Shown: positions 9,929 through 52,227 of the stretch, piece after piece
Layout of the letters: each line of letters starts with the position of its first letter
How positions within the stretch are numbered: the stretch's first letter is position 1
NCBI GenBank assembly: GCA_966251135.1
Contig: CBINKC010000003.1
Location: forward strand, 9,139 to 73,138
DNA from: an uncultured Burkholderiaceae bacterium
Lineage (GTDB): Bacteria > Pseudomonadota > Gammaproteobacteria > Burkholderiales > Burkholderiaceae_C
DNA length: 64,000 nucleotides
Direction of reading: 5' to 3'
Notes under the pieces: model-generated
Databases searched by the model: none
What the model was told of the DNA's origin: nothing
The model's input: only the letters and a program-made list of their open reading frames with translations
Translations under genes and position numbers: made by a program

Positions 9929-9970
9929 ACACTAGGCGTGCGCCTGCCTATTTGGATTGATGCGCGTCAG
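9929..9970 (-). promoter_or_regulatory. FNR/Anr-like box (TTGAT-GCGC-GTCAG on +) with -10 TAGTGT on the minus strand
   Basis: Box at 9957-9970; -10 at 9934-9929 places the centre at -41.5 (class II spacing), upstream of the 9854 gene. Confidence 0.6.
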
Positions 9971-27578: not shown

Positions 27579-27619
27579 TTGATCTGCGTCAGCGCGCGGG
27601 TTGAATCGTCCCCTACCCT
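27579..27619 (+). promoter_or_regulatory. FNR/Anr-like box (TTGAT-CTGC-GTCAG) with -10 TACCCT
   Basis: Box at 27579-27592; -10 at 27614-27619 places the centre at about -40.5; upstream of the small ORF-acs-pdh-ACP operon. Confidence 0.62.
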
Positions 27620-40720: not shown

Positions 40721-41686
40721 TCACCCTTGCGTGAGCTGCCGTTCCAGCCGGTCCAGCACTTCGTAGCAGGGCAGCACCTGCGCCACGCTGGCGTTGGGTT
40801 CGCGCCTTTCCCGGATCGCGGCGAAAAACTCCCGGTCCTGGAGTTCGATGCCGTTGGTGGAGACATCGACCTTCGAGACGTCGATCTTCTCTTCCTTGCC
40901 GGTGTAGAGATCGTCGTAGCGAGCGATGTAGGTGCCGGTATCGCCGATGTATCGGAAGAACGTGCCCAGCGGCCCGTCGTTGTTGAACGACAGGCTCAAC
41001 GTGCAGATCGCGCCGTTGGCCGCCTTGAGCTGGATCGACATGTCCATGGCGATGCCCAGCGCGGAATGGGAGGGCCCCTGCAACGCATTGGCCTTCACGA
41101 TCGGGCTGCCCACCTGGTAGGCGAAGAGGTCCACGGTGTGCGCCGCGTGGTGCCACAGCAGGTGGTCGGTCCAGCTGCGCGGCTGGCCCAGCGCGTTGGT
41201 GTTCGTGCGACGGAAGAAATAGGTCTGCACGTCCATCTGGTAGACCTGGAACTCGCCTGCCCTAACCCGGCGATGGACCCACTGGTGGCTGGGATTGAAG
41301 CGCCGCGTGTGGCCGCACATGGCCACGAGCCCCGTCTCGCGCTGCATGCGCACCACGTCCTGGGCATCGGCCAGCCGGTCGGCCAGCGGGATCTCCACCT
41401 GCACGTGCTTGCCGGCCTTCAGGCAGGCAATGGCCTGCGAGGCGTGCATCTGCGTGGGCGTGCACAGGATCACCGCATCGACCTCGGACAGGGCCAGGCT
41501 TTCGTTCAGGTCGGTGGTGCAGTGGCGGATGCCGTACTTGCCGGCCACCTCGCGGGTCTGCTCGGGCTGGCGGCTGACAAGCGAGACGACCTCCACGCCC
41601 GCGATGCTGCGCAGGGCGTCGAGGTGCTTCACACCGAACGCGCCCGCACCGGCGAGCGCGACCTTGATCGTGTTCTGGCGGCTCAT
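40721..41686 (-). CDS. ligC: 4-carboxy-2-hydroxymuconate-6-semialdehyde dehydrogenase (Gfo/Idh/MocA)
   Basis: KVALAGAGAFG, HVQVEIP, RRFNPSHQW, WTDHLLWHHAAHTVD; follows ligAB. Confidence 0.9.
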   Translation of the reverse strand: MSRQNTIKVALAGAGAFGVKHLDALRSIAGVEVVSLVSRQPEQTREVAGKYGIRHCTTDLNESLALSEVDAVILCTPTQMHASQAIACLKAGKHVQVEIPLADRLADAQDVVRMQRETGLVAMCGHTRRFNPSHQWVHRRVRAGEFQVYQMDVQTYFFRRTNTNALGQPRSWTDHLLWHHAAHTVDLFAYQVGSPIVKANALQGPSHSALGIAMDMSIQLKAANGAICTLSLSFNNDGPLGTFFRYIGDTGTYIARYDDLYTGKEEKIDVSKVDVSTNGIELQDREFFAAIRERREPNASVAQVLPCYEVLDRLERQLTQG

Positions 41687-41687
41687 G

Positions 41688-42961
<1,274 letters not shown>

Positions 42962-42992
42962 GGTGTTGTCTCCTGCTCCTGTCGATGCGCCT

Positions 42993-43913
42993 TCAGCCGC
43001 CCGCTTCCTCGGGCCAGTACAGGCGCATCGGGTTGTCCACGAGCAGCTTGCGCTGCATCTCGGGCGTGGTGGCGATGTGCGGGATGAAGTCGACCAGCAA
43101 GCCGTCATCAGGCATGTGGTCCTTGAGGTTGGGATGCGGCCAGTCGGTGCCCCACAGCACGCGGTCGGGAAACGCCTCGACCACGCGGCGCGCGAACGGC
43201 ACCACGTCGCGGTAGGGGTTGCGCTCGCCGTGGAGCGCGGGCGGCCCGCTCACCGACAGCCGCTCGGGACAGCTCACCTTGCTCCACACATTGGGGTGCT
43301 CGCGCATGAACTCCAGGAAGAGCGAGAACTCCGGGCCGTCGAGGGGCTGAGTCACATCGGGGCGACCCATGTGGTCGACCACCACGCCGGTGGGCAGCGC
43401 GGTGAAGAAATCCCACAGTTCCGGCAGGTCCTGCGCCTCGAAGTAGATGACCACGTGCCAGCCCCGCTGCGCGATGCGCCCGGCGATCTCCATCAACTCG
43501 TCCTTGGGCGTGAAGTCCACCAGCCGCTTGACGAAGTTGAAGCGCACGCCGCGCACACCGGCGTCGTGCATGGCCTGCAGCTCGGCGTCGGCCACGTCGC
43601 GGCGCACCGTGGCGACACCACGCGCCCGCCCGCCGGAATGCACGAGCGCATCGACCATGGCGCGGTTGTCCGCGCCGTGGCAGGTGGCCTGCACCACCAC
43701 GTTGCGAGCGAAGCCGAGGTGGTCGCGCAGGGCATAGAGCTGCTCCTTGCTCGCGTCGCAGGGCGTGTACTTGCGCTCCGGGGCATAGGGGAACTGCTCG
43801 CCCGGGCCGAACACGTGGCAGTGCGCATCCACCGCGCCGGGCGGCACCTGGAAGTGCGGCTTGCTGGGGTGGGGGGTCCAGTCGAGCCAGCCGGGGGTCT
43901 TCTGGAATTCCAT
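42993..43913 (-). CDS. ligI: 2-pyrone-4,6-dicarboxylate lactonase
   Basis: VDAHCHVFGP, YTPCDA, VQATCHG, DHMGRP, WGTDWPHPN. Confidence 0.93.
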   Translation of the reverse strand: MEFQKTPGWLDWTPHPSKPHFQVPPGAVDAHCHVFGPGEQFPYAPERKYTPCDASKEQLYALRDHLGFARNVVVQATCHGADNRAMVDALVHSGGRARGVATVRRDVADAELQAMHDAGVRGVRFNFVKRLVDFTPKDELMEIAGRIAQRGWHVVIYFEAQDLPELWDFFTALPTGVVVDHMGRPDVTQPLDGPEFSLFLEFMREHPNVWSKVSCPERLSVSGPPALHGERNPYRDVVPFARRVVEAFPDRVLWGTDWPHPNLKDHMPDDGLLVDFIPHIATTPEMQRKLLVDNPMRLYWPEEAGG

Positions 43914-43918
43914 GGCGG

Positions 43919-44845
43919 TCAGTCCTTGTTCGTGCGGACGTGCCTGAGGATGCGGTCGGCCTCGGTGCGCCAGTCGGGGCTGCGCGCGAACTCCTGGCTG
44001 CCGCGCGGGCCGAAGAGCCCCGCGTCGGCAAGATCGGCGACCCAGGCCTGGCGCTCGGCCGTGCCGCTGGCCGACCACGGCTCCAGGCCCGCCTCGCGCA
44101 CGGTCTCGGCCACCTCGCGCACTTCCTCGCTGCGGCGGCGGCCGTGCTCGATCACGCGCTGGAAGAAGTAGGCCGCCTGCTTCTCCCAGTCGATGCCGGG
44201 GAAGGTTTCGGCCAGCGAGGCGATGACCGCATCTTCCACGCCGTAATGGCGCGCCGCCGTGAAGCTCTCGATGACCATGGCCTCCAGGCCCTTGATCATC
44301 ACGCTGCGGCACATCTTGGTGGCCGAGGCCACGCCCAGCTTCTCGCTCGCGACCTTCGCGTCGAAGCCCAGCGCATGGAGGAGCGGCGCCAGCTCGGCCG
44401 CGCCCGCGCCGCCCAGCAGCAAGGGCACGTTGATGCGATACGGCGGAATCGAGGTCATCACCGCCCCTTCGACATAACGGCCGCCCGCGCCATCGATGAG
44501 CGCGGCCGCGCGCTGCTTGGCGCCCGGCGAAGCGGAGTTGAAGTCGAGAAACCAGGCGCCACGCCTTACGGCCGGCGCGCAAGCCTCGGCCACGGGCACG
44601 GCCTGGCTCGCAGTGACCGCAGACACGATGAAGTCGGCACACGAGGCCAGTTCCGCATGCGAGCCCACGAGCGACACGCCGCGCGCACCGGCGTGGTCAT
44701 GCAGCTCACCGGCCTGCGACCCGCCCAGCTTCAGGTCATAGGCACTGACCTGCACGCCTTGCGCACCGAGGTCTTCGGCCAGGATGCGTCCGACCTCGCC
44801 ATAGCCCACGAGGCCCACATGCCATTGCTTGGGGTCGATCGTCAT
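43919..44845 (-). CDS. NAD(P)-dependent oxidoreductase, DUF1932/6PGD-like
   Basis: GLVGYGEVG, DFNSASP, KMCRSVMIKGLEA. Confidence 0.82.
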   Translation of the reverse strand: MTIDPKQWHVGLVGYGEVGRILAEDLGAQGVQVSAYDLKLGGSQAGELHDHAGARGVSLVGSHAELASCADFIVSAVTASQAVPVAEACAPAVRRGAWFLDFNSASPGAKQRAAALIDGAGGRYVEGAVMTSIPPYRINVPLLLGGAGAAELAPLLHALGFDAKVASEKLGVASATKMCRSVMIKGLEAMVIESFTAARHYGVEDAVIASLAETFPGIDWEKQAAYFFQRVIEHGRRRSEEVREVAETVREAGLEPWSASGTAERQAWVADLADAGLFGPRGSQEFARSPDWRTEADRILRHVRTNKD

Positions 44846-44854
44846 CGCGCCCGC

Positions 44855-45538
44855 TCAGTCCATGTAGCGCAGGCCCGCCTTCTCCAGCGGCTCGCGCATC
44901 TTGTACATGTCCAGGCCCAGCACCCCGGAGGCGAGCGTCTCGCGCTTCTGGCCTTCGTTGGCCTCGCGGGTGGTGGCCGCTGCCAGCGCCATGGCCGCCA
45001 GCGCGCGGGGCACGCAGACCACGCCGTCGTCATCGGCCACGATCACGTCGCCCGGCGTGACGAGCGCGCCGGCACACACGACCGGGATGTTCACCGAGCC
45101 GAGCGTCGCCTTGATCGTGCCCTTGGAGCTGATGGCCTTGCTCCACACCGGAAACTTCATCTCGGCCAGGGTGCGGATGTCCCTCACGCCGGCATCGATG
45201 ACGAGTGCGCGTGCGCCGCGAGCCTGGAACGAGGTGGCCAGCAAATCACCGAAGTAGCCGTCCGTGCATTCGGAGGTGACCGCGGCCACGACGACATCGC
45301 CGGGACGGATCTGCTCGGCCGCGACGTGCAACATCCAGTTGTCCCCGGGTTGCAGCAGCACGGTGACCGCCGGGCCCGAAACCTGCGCACCCGCATAGAT
45401 GGGCCGCATGTAAGGCTTGAGCAGGCCGACACGGCCCATCGCCTCGTGCACCGTGGCGCTCCCGAAGCGGGCGAGCGGCCCGGCGATGGCGGCATCCGTG
45501 CGCTGGATGTTGCGGTAGACCACTCCGAGTTCGTACAT
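44855..45538 (-). CDS. ligK: 4-carboxy-4-hydroxy-2-oxoadipate aldolase / oxaloacetate decarboxylase
   Basis: [41 protein letters not shown]. Confidence 0.94.
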
Positions 45539-45539
45539 C

Positions 45540-46565
45540 TCACTTCCCCTTGGCCTTGAGTGCGGCGTCGAGGCGCGGGTAGACCCGCCGCGCGTTGCCC
45601 TCGTAGATCTTGTGGCGCTGCTCGGCATTCATGGCCGACGCCTCGATATAGCGCCGGGTGTCGTCGTAGTGGTGCCCGGTCTCGGGATCGATGCCGCGTA
45701 CCGCACCGATCATCTCGCTGGCGAACAGGATGTTGTCGATGGGGATCACCTTCGTCAGCAGGTCGATGCCCGGCTGGTGATAGACGCAGGTATCGAAGTA
45801 GATGTTGTCGAGCAAATGGTCCTTCAGCAGCGGCTTCTTCAGCTCCTGGGCGAGGCCGCGAAAGCGCCCCCAGTGATAGGGCACCGCGCCGCCGCCATGC
45901 GGAATCACGAACTTGAGGTCGGGGAAGTCCTTGAACAGGTCGCCAGTCAGGCACTGCATGAAGGCCGTCGTGTCGGCATTGAGGTAGTGCGCCCCTGTGG
46001 TGTGGAAGCACGGGTTGCAGCTCGTGCTCACGTGGATCATGGCGGGAATGCGGTACTCGACCATCTTTTCGTAGATGGGGTACCAGTGCCGGTCCGTCAG
46101 CGGCGGCGAGTTCCAGTGGCCGCCCGAAGGATCGGGGTTGAGGTTGATGGCGACGAAACCATACTCATTGACGCACTTCTCCAGCTCCGGGATGCAGGTC
46201 TTCGGGTCCACGCCTGGTGACTGGGGCAGCATGGCTGCGCCGATGAAGTGATCGGGAAAGCGCTGCGACACCCGATAGCACAGCTCGTTGCAGATGGCCG
46301 CCCAGGTGGACGACACCTCGAAGTCGCCGATGTGGTGGGCCATGAAGCTGGCGCGCGGGCTGAACACCGTGAGGTCCGAGCCGCGCTCCTTCATGAACCG
46401 GAGCTGGTTGGCCTCGATGGACTCGCGCAGCTCGTCGTCCGAGATCTTCAGGTCGGCCACCTTGGGCTTCACCGCGGGGTCCTCGATCCCGGCGATCTGC
46501 TGGTGGCGCCAACTCTCCAACGCCTTGGGTGCCGTGGTGTAGTGACCGTGGCAGTCGATGATCAT
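45540..46565 (-). CDS. ligJ: 4-oxalomesaconate hydratase
   Basis: [45 protein letters not shown]. Confidence 0.94.
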
Positions 46566-46609
46566 CGTCGCGGTCTCCAGATGTCGTGCAGGAGGTGTGT
46601 GTTGCAGGT

Positions 46610-47299
46610 TCAGGCAGGCTCCATGCCTTGCCGCCGCTTCGCCTCGGCCGCCTCGGGCGAGGCCATGAAGTCGAGCAGCGCCCGTGCGGCTTCGGGCTGC
46701 GTGGAGGCGGCGCACAGACCGCCCGAGAACGTGGTCAGGATCTCCAGGCCCGGCGGCATGGGGCCGAGCACCTCGATGCCCTCCAGATGCATCAGCTCGC
46801 TGCGCTGCTGGAACCCCAGCTCCACCTCACCGCGTGCCACCAAGGCTCCCACCGGCACGCCGGGCGGGGCCTGCACGATGCGCCCGTGCAGGGTTTCGGT
46901 GATGCCCCAGCGTTCGAAGAGCTCTTGCAGCGCCACGCCACTCGGGCCGGTGGAATAGCCCAGCGTGCGGGCCGCGAGCACGGCGCCACGCAGCGCCTCT
47001 TCGGAGCCGATGTCCGGACGCGGCGCCCCCAGTCGCACCGCGATGGCCACGCCGGAGCGCACCAGATCGGTCTTGCTGTCGCGCCACACGCGGCCGGCGG
47101 CGATGAGCTTGTCGATGGCATCCGAGGCGAGCACGACCACATCGAAAGGCTCGCCAGCCTGCACCCGCCGGGCGGCATCGACTCCGCCTACGGATTCGAA
47201 CGTCACCACCACGCCGCTGCGCCTCTCGCAGGCCCCGGCCAACTCGGCAAGCACCTGGCGCGTGGCCATGGACGAAATGCCGGTGATCCTCGTCGTCAT
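46610..47299 (-). CDS. ModA-like substrate-binding-fold protein lacking a signal peptide
   Basis: ISSMAT..VL, FESVGG, FDVVVLA, RSGVAIAVR.G, YSTGPSG, GFQQRSEL; starts directly with the mature domain. Confidence 0.8.
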   Translation of the reverse strand: MTTRITGISSMATRQVLAELAGACERRSGVVVTFESVGGVDAARRVQAGEPFDVVVLASDAIDKLIAAGRVWRDSKTDLVRSGVAIAVRLGAPRPDIGSEEALRGAVLAARTLGYSTGPSGVALQELFERWGITETLHGRIVQAPPGVPVGALVARGEVELGFQQRSELMHLEGIEVLGPMPPGLEILTTFSGGLCAASTQPEAARALLDFMASPEAAEAKRRQGMEPA

Positions 47300-47574
47300 G
47301 TCGGACTCCGCAACCCCGGCGCGGCGTGGTGCATCGGGGCAGGCCATGGAGGGGGGCTCACCGTCATTCTCGTCAAGTGCTCTGCCAGCGAAGTCGGTGA
47401 GGGGATTCACACAGCGCCAATGCCGCCCCGCCCGCTGCGACCCGAACCTGCCGATGCGCCGTGCCGACCGTCTGTTCCGAGTCGTGCAGATTCCGAGATG
47501 AACCCGGCCACACGCTCGCCGACCTGTTCCGGACCGTCGAGAGCGAACGATGCGAGGACGCAGCACCCCCGGCC

Positions 47575-47730
47575 TCAATCGCTCTTGACGTCGCGAGCCT
47601 TGACGATCGCGGCGTAGCGCCGGCTGTCTTTCTTCAGCTTGCCCTCGCGCACGTGGCTGGTCTTTTTGGTCGGCCATGGGGCCTGCCGAGCGTAGGCACC
47701 GGCGCCCACGATGCCCACTTGTGTACGCAT
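47575..47730 (-). pseudogene. Chimeric deletion scar: flavoprotein monooxygenase (PobA-like) start fused to a Bug-protein C-terminus
   Basis: MRTQVGIVGAG...VREGKLKKDSRRYAAIVKARDVKSD*; strong GAGGAGG RBS just after the upstream Bug stop. Confidence 0.55.
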
Positions 47731-47742
47731 GGCCGTCCCTCC

Positions 47743-48714
47743 TCAGCCGTTCCGCGGCAGGCCCAGCGCCTTGATGAGCCTGGCGTACTTGGCGGTCTCG
47801 TCCTGCTGGAACTTGCGCAGCTGCTCGGGCGTGCTGGCGACCACGGTCACGCCGTCCTTCACCAGCGATTCGCGCAGCTTCGGATCGGCGAAGGCCTTCA
47901 CCGTCTCCTGGTGCAGCCGCTGCACGATTGGTGCAGGCGTGCCCGCGGGCGCGTACAGGCCGAACCACAACAGCACCTCGTAGCCCTTTACGCCCGCCTC
48001 CGACATGGTGGGCAAGTTCGGCACAGCCGGCGAGCGCTCCAGGCTCGTCACTGCCAACGCCTTGAGCTTGCCGGTATTCACCAGCGGCAGCGACAGCGCC
48101 GTGCTGTCGAACAGGATGTCCACGTGCCCGCCCAGCGCGTCCTGCACCGCCTGCGCCGGGCCCTTGGCCGGCACGTGCAGCAGCTTCACACCGGCCATCG
48201 AAACCAGCATCTCGCCCGCGATGTGCCCCGAGGTGCCGATACCGGCCGAGGTGTAGGTGAGCTTGCCGGGGTTGGCCTTGGCCTGCGCGATGAGGTCACC
48301 CACGCTCTTGGCGGGATTCGACGGCTGCACCAGCAGCATGTTCGGCACCTTGGTCAGCAGGCTGACCGGCTCGAAGTCCTTGGCCGGGTCATAGGGCAGC
48401 TTCATCAGGCTCGCGTTGATGGCATGCGACGCATGCGATCCCATCAGGATGGTGTAGCCATCGGGCTGGGCCCTCGCCACGAAGTCGCTCCCGATCGTGG
48501 CGCCAGCCCCGGCCTTGTTCTCCACCACCACGGGCTGCCCCATCGACTCCTGCATCTTCTCGGCCAGCGAGCGGGCGATGCGGTCGGTCAGGCCGCCCGG
48601 TGGAAACGGCACGACGAACTTGATCGGCTTGTCGGGATACCCAGCCGGCGTGGCGTGAGCAGCAGGCAGCAGCGCGGCCAGCACAGAGGCCGCCAGTACG
48701 GTTCTACGCTTCAT
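47743..48714 (-). CDS. Bug/TctC substrate-binding protein
   Basis: YPDKPIKFVVPFPPGG, VVVENKAGAG, PDGYTIL. Confidence 0.93.
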   Translation of the reverse strand: MKRRTVLAASVLAALLPAAHATPAGYPDKPIKFVVPFPPGGLTDRIARSLAEKMQESMGQPVVVENKAGAGATIGSDFVARAQPDGYTILMGSHASHAINASLMKLPYDPAKDFEPVSLLTKVPNMLLVQPSNPAKSVGDLIAQAKANPGKLTYTSAGIGTSGHIAGEMLVSMAGVKLLHVPAKGPAQAVQDALGGHVDILFDSTALSLPLVNTGKLKALAVTSLERSPAVPNLPTMSEAGVKGYEVLLWFGLYAPAGTPAPIVQRLHQETVKAFADPKLRESLVKDGVTVVASTPEQLRKFQQDETAKYARLIKALGLPRNG

Positions 48715-49766
48715 GTGGTCATCTCCTTGGCCTTGGCGCCGGGGCTCTCCTCGGCCGCAGCCATCTGTTCAAGCAGCCGGCGCACGCGCGAGGGCCCGGC
48801 ATCAATGGCCAGCCACGTGTACTGGCGCACGCCCGTGACCTCCTGCTCATGCTGCACGGCGGTGCACATCACGTTGTCTTCGCAGAAGGTCGCGTCCATC
48901 CCCTTGGCAAGCTCCTTCTGGAAATCGGGATCACCCACGCGGAAATTGCGCACGTGCATCCAGAAGAAGTGCGTGGAGTTGTCCGTCTCGGGCGTGAGGA
49001 ACTTGTAGCTGAACGCGCGCAGCCCGCGGTCCATGTTCTCCTCGGTGTGCTCCTGGCCCGCGTCCATGGTCGCCACATCCACCCGCGACACGCAGGGCGC
49101 GAAGTAGTTGTAGTACTGGCAGCGGTCGGTGAGCCCCTTGAAGTTGCCGTGGTTCTGGTCGATGGGCGGCGGCGGCGCGTTGTCGGTCCAGCGCCAGCTG
49201 ACCACGTGGTCGCCTTCCTGCTCCACCTTCACCGGCACGTCGCTTGCGGCCGGGTTGCCGATGGTGCCCACGTGCACGAAGGTGGTGTGCGCGGGATCCT
49301 GCAGGTTCTCGGCGATGTTGAGGTAATCGCAGCCATGCTTCTGGTAGCCGCCGTCGATGACGGCCCAACCCGGCTCGCCGTAGCGCAGCACGCGGTGGAT
49401 CTTGGAGGGATCGGCCAGCGCCGGGTCGCCCATCCAGATCCAGATCGCGTTGTAGCGCTCGGCCACCGGGAAGCTGCGCACTTTCGCGGTGGGCGGGATC
49501 TGCTCCTGACCCGGGATGCGGGTGCACTGGCCCGAGCAGTCGAACACCAGCCCGTGGTAGCCGCACTCCACGGCATCGCCGACCAGCCGGCCCAGCGACA
49601 GTGGTGCGAGCTTGTGCGCGCAGCGGTCGATGAGTGCCGCCGGCGTGCCGTCTTGCTTGCGGTACAGCACGATGGGCTCGTTGAGGATGCGTCGCTTGAA
49701 GAGCGTGCGGCCGACCTCGTGCGACCACGCCGCGACGTACCAAGCGTTCCTGATGAACTTGGTCAC
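48711..49766 (-). CDS. Rieske non-heme iron oxygenase, VanA-like O-demethylase family
   Basis: NAWYVAAW, CAH...CGYHG Rieske ligands, ENLQDPAHTTFVH, EDNVMC. Confidence 0.88.
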   Translation of the reverse strand: MTKFIRNAWYVAAWSHEVGRTLFKRRILNEPIVLYRKQDGTPAALIDRCAHKLAPLSLGRLVGDAVECGYHGLVFDCSGQCTRIPGQEQIPPTAKVRSFPVAERYNAIWIWMGDPALADPSKIHRVLRYGEPGWAVIDGGYQKHGCDYLNIAENLQDPAHTTFVHVGTIGNPAASDVPVKVEQEGDHVVSWRWTDNAPPPPIDQNHGNFKGLTDRCQYYNYFAPCVSRVDVATMDAGQEHTEENMDRGLRAFSYKFLTPETDNSTHFFWMHVRNFRVGDPDFQKELAKGMDATFCEDNVMCTAVQHEQEVTGVRQYTWLAIDAGPSRVRRLLEQMAAAEESPGAKAKEMTT

Positions 49767-49814
49767 AGCTTTACTCCTGATGGCGGTGGCGGGGCGTAGC
49801 GCCCCGCATGGTGG

Positions 49815-50657
49815 TTACGGGCGGTCCGTGAAGGTCACAAGCCCCATGCCGCTGGTCATCGGCGCGTAGTAGTTGCGGTGCACGCGTCGCACCTCGTCCT
49901 TGAGCGCACCGCGCATCACCAGCCACATGATCAGTTCCACGGCCTCGGCCCCGGCGGCGGCCATGATGTCCTTGTGCGTCAACTGGGTAAGCGCCGCCGG
50001 GTCGGTTTCGAGCTTGTCCAGGAAGTCGTTGTCCCACTGCGAGTTCATGTGGCCCATGCGCTCGCCATGCAGTTGGTGCGACATGCCCCCGGTGCCGACA
50101 ATCGCCACGCGTAGGTCCTTCGGGTACGAGTCGACCGCGTCGCGGATCGCCCGGCCCAGCTTGAAGCACCGGGCCGCCGTGGGCAGCGGGTGCAGCAGCA
50201 CGTTCACAACGACCGGCACCACCTTCACGCCCCAGTCCGGCTCATGCGAGAAGAGCAATGGCAGCGGCACCAACAGGCCGTGGTCCACCTTCATCTCCTG
50301 GCACACGGTGATGTCGAACTCGTCATTGATGAGCGACTTGATGATGTGCCACGAGAAGTCCGCGTCGCCCGGCACCACCGGCAGCTTGCGCGGGCCGAAG
50401 CCCTCGTCGCCGACGGCGTACTCGTCGGCCGCGCCGATCGCAAACGTCGGGTACTTGTCGAAGAAGAAGTCCGTGCCATGGTCGTTGTAGACCACGATGG
50501 CCACATCGGGCTTCGCCTCGGTCTCCAGCCATTGCTTGACCGGAACGTAGCCGTCGAAGAGCGGCTTCCATGTGGAGTCGACCTGCTTCTGCGTGTCGTA
50601 CGCGCGACCGATGGAGGGGACATGCGAGCTTCCGATGCCCGCGACGATCTTGCCCAT
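49815..50657 (-). CDS. Second class III extradiol dioxygenase beta subunit (LigB-like)
   Basis: SSHVPSIG, VYNDHG, VDHGLLVP, GGMSHQLHG, AEAVEL. Confidence 0.9.
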   Translation of the reverse strand: MGKIVAGIGSSHVPSIGRAYDTQKQVDSTWKPLFDGYVPVKQWLETEAKPDVAIVVYNDHGTDFFFDKYPTFAIGAADEYAVGDEGFGPRKLPVVPGDADFSWHIIKSLINDEFDITVCQEMKVDHGLLVPLPLLFSHEPDWGVKVVPVVVNVLLHPLPTAARCFKLGRAIRDAVDSYPKDLRVAIVGTGGMSHQLHGERMGHMNSQWDNDFLDKLETDPAALTQLTHKDIMAAAGAEAVELIMWLVMRGALKDEVRRVHRNYYAPMTSGMGLVTFTDRP

Positions 50658-50659
50658 GT

Positions 50660-51037
50660 TCAAACTGCTCCTTTGCCACTGCGCGTCTGGAGGAACTGCT
50701 CCAGCGTCTCGCCGCGTTGTTGCGCGCCCATCGTGTACAGGCCCACGCCGAGGCACTCGGCCACCTTGATCATCAGGTAGACGTTGCCGCCAAGGTCCTT
50801 GATCAGATGCAGCCAATCTTGGCCACGCACGGCCTGCTTCTGCGCTTCGCTCAGGCCGTACTTCGCCATGTACGCTTCCCTATCCGCCTTGAAGGCCTCG
50901 CGGTTCTCGGGCTTGGTCAGTGACATGCACATCTTGTTGAAGGGGTAACCGATCCTCGAACGCGTGTAGTCGAACGGATAGGTGCCCGGGATACCCCAAT
51001 CCTGAGGCTGCATCTCCGGGGACTTGGTCTCTTCCAT
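50660..51037 (-). CDS. Second LigA-like alpha subunit
   Basis: IPGTYPFD, GYPFNKMCMSL, GGNVYLMIK. Confidence 0.88.
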   Translation of the reverse strand: MEETKSPEMQPQDWGIPGTYPFDYTRSRIGYPFNKMCMSLTKPENREAFKADREAYMAKYGLSEAQKQAVRGQDWLHLIKDLGGNVYLMIKVAECLGVGLYTMGAQQRGETLEQFLQTRSGKGAV

Positions 51038-51327
51038 GGTGTCTCCTGTTGTCGTTGCTGAGGAATTGCGGCGACGATCACGCCGCGCCAACGCTGGATC
51101 TCCGCACGCCCGCCCTACCCCGAAAGCAGCCAACGACCAAGGCCAGGATGAGTAGAAATTTCATGGAACCGCGGGGGCAAGGGCGCATACCGCGCGTCTA
51201 TCGCGAGGGCCGCAAACGACGTGCCGAAACGTGACGCAGATCAAGGCCCGCAGCTTAGGGAAAGCGTCTCCCGGCGATAAGCCGGTACCGCGTGGACACA
51301 CTGTCCACCCCGCCGGACAATCTTTCG

Positions 51328-52227
51328 ATGAACTGGGACGACTACGACGTGTTCTGCCGCGTGGTCGAGCAAGGCGGCTTCAGTGCCGCGGGCCGCGCGA
51401 TGGGCCGTCCACGCTCCAGCATCAGCGCATCGGTGATGCGCCTCGAACACGCGTTGCAGACGCGCCTGCTCGAGCGCACCACGCGCCGGCTACGCATGAC
51501 CGAAGCCGGCGAATCGCTCTACCAAACCATGGGGCCGCTCTTCATTCAGCTACGCGAGGCACGCATGGACCTCGCCGCTCAGGAGGGCACCGTCTATGGC
51601 ATTTTGCGCATGGCCTCGCCCTACGAGTTCGCCGCGCATCACCTCGCTGCCGCTGCCTGCCAAGTCCTGGCGTGTCACCCTCAGCTCCACATGCAGATCG
51701 ACATCGAGTACGCGCGGGTGAGCCCGCTAGAGCGGCCCTACGACATCGTCTTCACCTTGGCAGATGTCCAGACACTCACCGCAGGCACGATCGCACGGCG
51801 GGTGTTCTCGCTGCAGCCCGCGGTGTACGCCGCCCCCTCGCTGCTTCAAGGCCGCGAGGCACCCTCAAGGCCGGAAGACCTGAACGACTTCCCGCTCATC
51901 GCGACGTCCACCGAAGTGGAGTGGCGGTTCGTCGGCCCCGGTGGCGAGCCCCACAGCGTCGCCATGGTCTCCCCACGCTTGCGCACATCCAACGCCGGCG
52001 TGCGGCTGCAGGCCGCCGTCGCGGGCATCGGCATCGCCCGCGTCGGCGCGGCGAGCTATGCGGAGCAGGCCGTGCGCGAGGGCCTGCTGCAGCCCGTACT
52101 GCCTAGCTACGCCTGCATGCCGGTGCCTGTGTATGCCCTCTTGCCTGGGCAACGCCACATGCCGGCGAAGGTGCGCGTCTTCCTCGACACGCTGAGCGAG
52201 CGGTTACCAGGGCCGAGCGGGCACTGA
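51328..52227 (+). CDS. LysR-family regulator (CrgA-like), divergent from the second ligAB operon
   Basis: WDDYDVFCRVVEQGGFSAAG...LERTTRRLRMTEAG. Confidence 0.92.
   Translation: MNWDDYDVFCRVVEQGGFSAAGRAMGRPRSSISASVMRLEHALQTRLLERTTRRLRMTEAGESLYQTMGPLFIQLREARMDLAAQEGTVYGILRMASPYEFAAHHLAAAACQVLACHPQLHMQIDIEYARVSPLERPYDIVFTLADVQTLTAGTIARRVFSLQPAVYAAPSLLQGREAPSRPEDLNDFPLIATSTEVEWRFVGPGGEPHSVAMVSPRLRTSNAGVRLQAAVAGIGIARVGAASYAEQAVREGLLQPVLPSYACMPVPVYALLPGQRHMPAKVRVFLDTLSERLPGPSGH

Follow-up and report, generated by a model that had tools for sequence, protein, structure and literature searches.

A second, diverged LigAB-type dioxygenase operon with a VanA-like Rieske oxygenase: a candidate gallate route in an uncultured Burkholderiaceae bacterium

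A 64-kb stretch of DNA from an uncultured Burkholderiaceae bacterium (G+C content ~0.61-0.71 measured over 2-kb windows; "the window" below means the whole stretch) carries a four-gene operon, ligA2-ligB2-Rieske-tctC, which encodes a second class III extradiol dioxygenase (LigA2B2), a VanA-like Rieske non-heme iron oxygenase and a TctC/Bug periplasmic solute receptor. The public contig closest to the window is from a metagenome-assembled genome (MAG) labeled "uncultured Burkholderiales bacterium". From sequence comparisons we favor, at somewhat better than even chances, the reading that LigA2B2 cleaves gallate and perhaps 3-O-methylgallate, that the Rieske protein is the O-demethylase that supplies it and that electrons reach the Rieske protein from a VanB encoded at a distance.

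The gene for the small (alpha) dioxygenase subunit, ligA2 (50660-51037, 125 aa, PF07746), is separated by 2 nt from that for the catalytic (beta) subunit, ligB2 (49815-50657, 280 aa, PF02900 and NCBIfam PRK13365). The gene for the 351-residue Rieske oxygenase (48711-49766, Rieske plus VanA_C domains) follows without an adjacent reductase gene and overlaps tctC (47743-48714, 323 aa, PF03401) via an ATGA sequence, and the two genes are translationally coupled. These four minus-strand genes are a real operon. A gene encoding a LysR-type transcriptional regulator (51328-52227, plus strand, 299 aa, HTH_1 plus LysR_substrate domains) diverges from ligA2, and all five genes are intact as judged by Pfam and NCBIfam profiles. 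The coordinates confirm the arrangement given in a preliminary description of this DNA, in which the LysR gene diverges from an operon lying upstream of, and co-directional with, the canonical lig genes.

Family placement and gene linkage of LigA2B2

The matches of LigA2 to PF07746 (E = 2e-30) and of LigB2 to PF02900 (E = 6e-70) put LigA and LigB domains on adjacent genes, the arrangement of a two-subunit class III extradiol dioxygenase. A genome-wide search found only two LigB-type genes, ligB2 and the canonical ligB of the window. The two pairs are clearly diverged, as first described, with LigB2 47% identical to LigB and LigA2 41% identical to LigA. His12, His60 and Glu241 of LigB2 align with the LigB Fe(II) ligands His12, His61 and Glu242, and His126 and His194 align with the catalytic residues His127 and His195. 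These iron ligands and catalytic histidines, the two subunits and the alpha-then-beta gene order are shared with LigAB/PmdAB of Sphingobium sp. SYK-6 (1B4U) and Comamonas, to which the identities are ~47% (beta) and ~40% (alpha). LigA2B2 differs from those enzymes in its PRK13365 subfamily, in having leucine for Phe103, in never having ligC as the next gene and in often being co-encoded with a gallate-forming hydroxylase.

The profile scores bear on the subfamily. The best NCBIfam model for LigB2 was PRK13365 (446 bits, cut-off 299), and PRK13366 (337 bits) was also above its cut-off. LigA2 scored 81.6 against TIGR02792, the equivalog model for the protocatechuate 4,5-dioxygenase alpha subunit (PCA_ligA), which is under the 108.6 cut-off, whereas the canonical LigA/LigB pair of the window scored 220 and 583 on the protocatechuate 4,5-dioxygenase models. 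In the sequence alignment Leu100 of LigA2 occupies the position of LigA Phe103, where the canonical LigA of the window retains phenylalanine; all 80 relatives of LigA2 (see below) also have leucine. LigA Phe103 governs C5-side selectivity, and the F103L, F103V, F103T and F103H substitutions raise turnover of gallate and 3-O-methylgallate (PMC10094722). By its alpha score, best beta model, residue at the Phe103 position and lack of ligC linkage, LigA2B2 appears to lie outside canonical LigAB/PmdAB.

LigA2B2 likewise seems to lie outside the GalA/DesB group. The reaction proposed for it, gallate to 4-oxalomesaconate, is that of DesB/GalA (3WKU), and similarity to DesB is seen in the C-terminal stretch of LigB2 and in the LGxG motif of LigA2. 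However, DesB and GalA each combine a LigB-like N-domain and a LigA-like C-domain in one fused polypeptide, LigA2B2 is encoded by two genes, LigA2 has Ile90 rather than the Glu377' of DesB, and the LigB2 score against NF009904 (GalA/DesB), 364.5 bits, is under the cut-off of 412.

A residue-level division into protocatechuate, gallate and 3-O-methylgallate enzymes was also attempted and dropped; the LigA2 proteins of loci linked to a protocatechuate 5-hydroxylase (PCAH) and of loci linked to PobA share the motif GLY.MGAQ.RG. Glu94 of LigA2 is unique to the clade of the window.

Gene neighborhoods were surveyed by a scan for the LigB2 family with one genome per species, which gave 80 loci with proteins 60-95% identical, and a panel of proteins from the window served as tblastn queries for annotating the flanks. 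In 39 of the 80 loci a gene encoding a PobA-type flavoprotein lies immediately downstream of ligB2, and all 39 proteins bear the clade-F signature Val/Ile199, Trp201, Met210 and Phe385. The PobA of locus L031, which belongs to a close relative, is the closest match to PDB 8JQO (583 bits), and two of the genes encode exactly WP_028601822 of Ottowia thiooxydans (locus L072) and WP_130361895 of Pigmentiphaga kullae (locus L067). Katsuki et al. reported that these two proteins (OtPobA and PkPobA), together with XaPobA (8JQO), prefer protocatechuate and yield gallate (PMC10770758). Thus the genes for two of the clade-F PobA enzymes of that report lie directly downstream of LigA2B2-family genes; such a gene is present in the nearest relatives of the window and persists only as a stub in the window itself. 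The same paper calls the physiological role of protocatechuate 5-hydroxylases unknown, its authors being able only to propose an antioxidant role, and its text names no dioxygenase, gene cluster or gene neighbors (PMC10770758). Our literature search found no later paper on the context of clade-F PobA. As gallate is the common denominator of the linked enzymes, we read LigA2B2 as a gallate-type dioxygenase.

The distribution of lower-pathway genes points the same way. None of 83 loci had a full-length ligC at a distance of up to 10 kb (ligB and ligC of the canonical type adjoin each other in the window and in two further genomes, and the ligC of the window follows canonical ligB rather than ligB2). 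Genes of the ligI type, pmdU or ligJ/ligK adjoin the LigA2B2 genes in several loci, and in the Eoetvoesiella locus it is ligI, not ligC, that follows the Rieske gene. Because ligC is unlinked whereas ligI, pmdU and ligJ/ligK are linked, a LigA2B2 product that needs 4-carboxy-2-hydroxymuconate-6-semialdehyde dehydrogenase is unlikely.

In a maximum-likelihood tree the LigB2 of the window falls in a well-supported clade of seven rows (100/95), in every member of which a Rieske gene directly follows ligB2. The PCAH-linked LigB2 sequences (n = 38), those of the Pigmentiphaga loci included, form another clade. The Pigmentiphaga loci have orthologs of the Rieske protein (61-66%) and of TctC (57-61%) encoded just upstream, beyond a MarR gene, and given these loci and the seven-row clade, the linkage of Rieske orthologs (61-90%) to LigA2B2 genes spans two distinct clades. 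The Hydrogenophaga copy of the Rieske gene lies at most 7 kb from a ligA-ligB-FAD monooxygenase cluster.

Other features of these loci were recorded. The P. kullae genome (G305) encodes three LigB2-family paralogs, no canonical LigB, two LigJ orthologs (63-65%) and a best LigC match of 41%, a gene set that fits a ligC-independent route into 4-oxalomesaconate. The Zn-dehydrogenase encoded downstream of PCAH in Pigmentiphaga was considered as a formaldehyde dehydrogenase and dropped (184 bits versus a cut-off of 637). A PobA-type clade with Val199, Asn201, Leu210 and Phe385, which lacks both substrate-activating tyrosines, occurs ~3-4 kb upstream of ligB2 in L001, L002/L066, L032 and L033, always near a ligA2-ligB2-Rieske operon and, in L001 and L002/L066, next to an AraC gene. 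Gammaproteobacterial MAGs have a further PobA-type variant (Ala199, Phe201 and His385) encoded next to ligA2-ligB2. In L075 and L093 the gene for this variant is immediately upstream and in the same orientation, and ligB2 is followed there by a distant Rieske gene (21-22% identity); in L078 the variant gene lies ~2.6 kb upstream and is read from the other strand.

The Rieske oxygenase, its reductase partner and the solute receptor

The Rieske protein has intact ligands for both of its metal centers (Cys49, His51, Cys68 and His71 for the Rieske cluster; His160, His165 and Asp297 for the iron) and matches VanA_C (PF19112) with E = 1e-42, as expected of a VanA-type class IA oxygenase. Its best PDB relatives, GdmA (7QWT) and DdmC, are O-demethylases. 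A VanA_C search of the genome found two genes, that of the window and a vanA on contig C13, which is followed by the gene for a 323-aa FNR-like/Fer2 reductase of the VanB type and then by a GntR regulator gene. The two oxygenases are only 35% identical and, with a canonical vanAB-gntR set already in the genome, the Rieske enzyme of the window is probably something other than a plain vanillate demethylase.

No class IA reductase (FNR-like with C-terminal Fer2) is encoded beside the Rieske gene of the window, and the C13 copy is the only one in the genome. This agrees with the preliminary description, which had noted the lack of a VanB-type reductase gene in the window; all five NAD_binding_1 matches of the genome are on other contigs. 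In the orthologous operon of another MAG (L032) a VanB-type reductase gene, the product of which is 61% identical to the C13 VanB, comes directly after the Rieske gene. More distant Rieske homologs (53-59%) of Cupriavidus, Halomonas and Comamonas (L112, L113 and L114) are each preceded by a VanB-type reductase gene. In the Cupriavidus sp. locus (59% homolog) the operon continues with frmA and fghA by NCBIfam, and the Comamonas sp. locus (53% homolog) has the same Pfam pattern of Zn-dehydrogenase and esterase. FrmA is S-(hydroxymethyl)glutathione dehydrogenase and FghA is S-formylglutathione hydrolase, the enzymes of formaldehyde detoxification. The operon of these two loci is a putative demethylase system, and its gene order is LysR, VanB-type reductase, Rieske protein, a protein of 333-340 aa without a Pfam family, Zn-dehydrogenase and esterase. 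Given the PDB relatives, the frmA/fghA operons and the L032 reductase, it is a reasonable inference that the Rieske protein is a demethylase with a VanB-type partner acting in trans. A paper on regulation in Comamonas makes no mention of reductase sharing. In sampled genomes of the same order we found no Rieske ortholog of greater than 47% identity.

The third component, TctC, matches the receptor family PF03401 (E = 3e-84, 283 bits), and an N-terminal signal peptide, MKRRTVLAASVLAALLPAAHA, is seen directly in its sequence. Its PDB relatives include terephthalate-binding proteins, and tctA genes were found on other contigs.

Deletion scars, regulatory sites and downstream genes

The nearest relatives of the locus are L031 (95% identity for LigB2), a JGI contig (97% for the Rieske protein), and L115 and L116 (92%). 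All have the gene order ligA2-ligB2-Rieske-tctC-PCAH-tctC followed by the pmd genes (92-97% identity), and their PCAH is a full 391-residue protein encoded at a position where the window has a scar. The 443-bp spacer after tctC of the window opens with the PCAH ribosome-binding site and first 11 codons (MRTQVGIVGAG), after which the sequence continues directly with the final codons of the second tctC. Compared with the full genes of the relatives, the resulting 51-codon open reading frame (ORF; 47575-47730, minus strand) is a chimera of the PCAH start and the tctC tail. A second remnant, a minus-strand ORF of 28 codons (51078-51164), lies within the lysR-ligA2 spacer. The first codons of this ORF correspond to the beginning of the signal peptide in the L031 tctC, the 3' coding end of which also persists ahead of ligA2, marking the ORF as the stub of a deleted tctC. 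Other genes have been lost as well. In L031 and L115 a LysR gene diverges from pmdU; it is gone from the window, as are the WYL regulator and glyoxalase genes of L031 (window 47300-47574 versus L031:13408-15579). No orthologs of the L031 WYL regulator or of the pmdU-proximal LysR were found elsewhere in the assembly.

Judged by these comparisons, the operon of the window is a recent deletion derivative of ligA2-ligB2-Rieske-tctC-PCAH-tctC, a history that the preliminary description had missed. The PCAH loss is recent, since one relative with 97% identity still possesses the gene. For the five retained genes the ratios of nonsynonymous to synonymous substitution rates (dN/dS) relative to L031 are 0.10-0.17. 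The pmd operon may now rely either on read-through from ligA2 or on a different regulator.

The LysR protein, which may regulate the divergent operon, is weakly similar to AaeR/YafC and is 86-87% identical to its L031 ortholog. An ortholog accompanies the module only in the closest relatives; LysR orthology across the loci was considered and rejected, since the regulator at the Eoetvoesiella locus is only 20% identical. A perfect dyad, GTGGACA-N3-TGTCCAC (51292-51308, no strand assigned), overlaps a predicted lysR promoter. The L031 counterpart reads ATGGACA-N3-TGTCCAT, so that the dyad is preserved despite changes in both arms, and the palindrome is a candidate operator.

A CRP/FNR-like box had also been placed in the promoter region. 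The box, TTGATCTGCGTCAC, is present at 51231-51244 (minus strand) as claimed, with two mismatches to TTGAT-N4-ATCAA, and its motif class is real and over-represented: the window has 20 such sites versus 7.7 ± 2.6 expected, and the genome has 10 perfect TTGAT-N4-ATCAA boxes versus ~0.5 expected. The pattern TTGAT-N4-GTCA, which was picked after the data had been seen, occurs three times versus 0.22 expected, and a further copy of the 13-mer TTGATCTGCGTCA, between unrelated flanks, lies at 27579; the genome has four copies of this 13-mer versus 0.04 expected. FNR-type boxes of the window include those at 9957, 27579 and 51232. The 51231-51244 box itself is not conserved, being degraded to three mismatches in L031 and not alignable at the other loci, and the 290-bp spacer that had been taken as the promoter region is partly the tctC stub.

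Downstream of the operon is the block of protocatechuate 4,5-cleavage genes (40721-47299, minus strand throughout, assigned by Pfam and NCBIfam). It consists of pmdU (46610-47299), ligJ (45540-46565), ligK (44855-45538), a DUF1932/NAD_binding_2 dehydrogenase-like gene (43919-44845), ligI (42993-43913), which encodes the hydrolase for 2-pyrone-4,6-dicarboxylate (PDC), the canonical ligA (42548-42961) and ligB (41688-42551), and ligC (40721-41686); an aldo-keto reductase gene comes after ligC. The ligI gene, the true start of which is the ATG at 43913, is buried in a spurious ORF of 549 aa and is missed by a longest-ORF listing; it was revealed by a frame plot of G+C content at third codon positions. 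The DUF1932 gene between ligK and ligI is kept in relatives (91% in L031, and also present in L115), and the best PDB match of its product is the uncharacterized protein 4EZB.

Proposed route, alternatives and significance

In the route that we favor, LigA2B2 would be a two-subunit class III extradiol dioxygenase specialized for 5-substituted protocatechuates, with gallate the likeliest substrate and 3-O-methylgallate a possible one. Its product, 4-oxalomesaconate (or PDC, formed via 4-carboxy-2-hydroxy-6-methoxy-6-oxohexa-2,4-dienoate, CHMOD), would pass to the PmdU, LigJ, LigK and LigI proteins encoded downstream, and the gallate route would skip the LigC step. TctC would import a methoxylated gallate derivative, 3-O-methylgallate and/or syringate, which the Rieske protein would demethylate to the dioxygenase substrate with electrons donated by the VanB-type reductase of the vanA locus on contig C13. 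In the ancestral operon the clade-F PobA would also have turned protocatechuate into gallate. Acceptance of 3-O-methylgallate would explain the position of ligI after the Rieske gene in Eoetvoesiella, since cleavage of 3-O-methylgallate gives CHMOD, which cyclizes to PDC. The preliminary description had proposed a peripheral funnel with a specialized two-subunit dioxygenase, a demethylase-type Rieske enzyme and a reductase in trans. Although incomplete, this was broadly right given the L032 VanB and the 53-59% homologs, and the substrate, then "methoxylated or otherwise substituted aromatic", is narrowed to gallate-type compounds, which were among the options named.

Several observations weigh against the favored route. 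In the PDB LigB2 has equal HMMER scores to LigB (1B4U) and DesB (3WKU), and a LigB-like versus DesB-like call from NCBIfam and PDB scores was dropped since the scores do not separate. The DesB residue with which LigA2 Ile90 aligns, Glu377', binds OH-5 of gallate, the alignment here being modestly reliable. The seven-row LigB2 clade of the window is separate from the 38-row PCAH-linked clade, and its sister clade is linked to conventional, protocatechuate-forming PobA (Tyr201/Tyr385). The low dN/dS values are no proof that the trimmed operon is in use; as the loss is recent, they carry mostly pre-deletion signal. Finally, every Rieske-linked locus except that of the window has a tyrosine-less PobA nearby (clade F or Val199/Asn201/Phe385), and hence the Rieske enzyme could work ahead of the hydroxylase, as a source of protocatechuate, instead of alongside it.

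This last point leads to the main rival explanation, which we consider unlikely though worth keeping in view. It retains the dioxygenase assignment but has the Rieske step precede that of the lost hydroxylase. The Rieske protein would demethylate a guaiacyl-type acid (isovanillate, veratrate, 4-methoxybenzoate or vanillate) to protocatechuate or a precursor, from which the ancestral PCAH then made gallate for LigA2B2. After PCAH loss the LigA2B2 of the window would be left without a dedicated supply and the Rieske product would go to canonical LigAB. All of the other Rieske-linked loci have a PobA lacking Tyr201 and Tyr385 nearby, the order Rieske-tctC-PCAH suits a linear route, and the PCAH deletion is recent. 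However, the genome already holds vanAB, the Eoetvoesiella Rieske gene is followed by ligI and not by ligC, and the presence in the relatives of a separate tctC receptor for each enzyme suggests two separate external substrates.

It seems improbable that LigA2B2 is just a redundant further protocatechuate 4,5-dioxygenase, with the whole module an isofunctional duplicate of the canonical route. The catalytic residues are all conserved, LigB2 passes the PRK13366 cut-off too, relatives in the sister clade and in Alphaproteobacteria adjoin conventional PobA genes (L004, L092 and L034), and LigAB2 of Novosphingobium aromaticivorans is somewhat active on protocatechuate (PMC8091115). These points are countered by the lack of ligC linkage in all 83 loci, by the family-wide leucine at the Phe103 position, by the LigA2 score of 81.6 versus the PCA_ligA cut-off of 108.6, and by the co-encoding of half of the family with an enzyme that consumes protocatechuate and forms gallate. 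Slightly less probable still is another substrate (5-chloro-, 5-methyl- or 5-carboxy-protocatechuate, or a xenobiotic methoxy- or N-methyl-aromatic acid) with the gallate link incidental, for although VanA-like oxygenases are highly diverse (dicamba, toluenesulfonate, guaiacol) and the LigA2 Glu94 is unique to the clade of the window, PCAH and LigA2B2 repeatedly share one operon and the neighboring lower pathway takes only 4-oxalomesaconate, PDC or 4-carboxy-4-hydroxy-2-oxoadipate.

The favored route, gallate cleavage by LigA2B2 with supply by the Rieske demethylase, has partial counterparts in known systems. The syringate operon vanA1B1-mgaAB-mgaC-mgaD of Pseudomonas sp. NGC7 also combines a VanA-type O-demethylase with a two-subunit LigAB-like dioxygenase, there acting on a syringate-derived catechol, but unlike the operon of the window it further encodes a dedicated reductase, a GntR repressor and a hydrolase for CHMOD (PMC12314914). 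By published identities MgaA is GalA-like and 21% identical to LigA (PMC12314914), whereas LigA2 is ~40% identical to LigA, and these identities suggest that MgaAB is of a different lineage from LigA2B2. By description, LigAB2 of N. aromaticivorans (Saro_1233/1234) is likewise a second, diverged LigAB paralog, and it prefers gallate over 3-O-methylgallate and protocatechuate in vitro (PMC8091115); no Rieske or PCAH neighbor is reported for it.

In its widest form our proposal is tentative, with a little less than an even chance of being right. It holds that the PRK13365 LigA2B2 proteins would be an unrecognized two-subunit gallate dioxygenase, that with clade-F PobA they would form a protocatechuate to gallate to 4-oxalomesaconate bypass without LigC or LigI, that the Rieske protein would supply the same node as a new 3-O-methylgallate/syringate O-demethylase, and that the operon of the window is being trimmed and fused to the pmd operon.

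Catabolism of syringyl lignin and gallate is poorly mapped beyond sphingomonads and Pseudomonas, and lignin-to-PDC bioconversion has bottlenecks at the O-demethylases that depend on oxygen and at the enzymes that cleave the ring of 5-substituted protocatechuates. The same genes are present in the cultured strains Pigmentiphaga kullae DSM 13708, Ottowia thiooxydans DSM 14619 and Eoetvoesiella caeni DSM 25520. If true, the proposal would give a function to a widespread LigAB subfamily, a metabolic context and physiological role to the natural protocatechuate 5-hydroxylases described in 2023, and a new subfamily of VanA-like demethylases that use a shared reductase.

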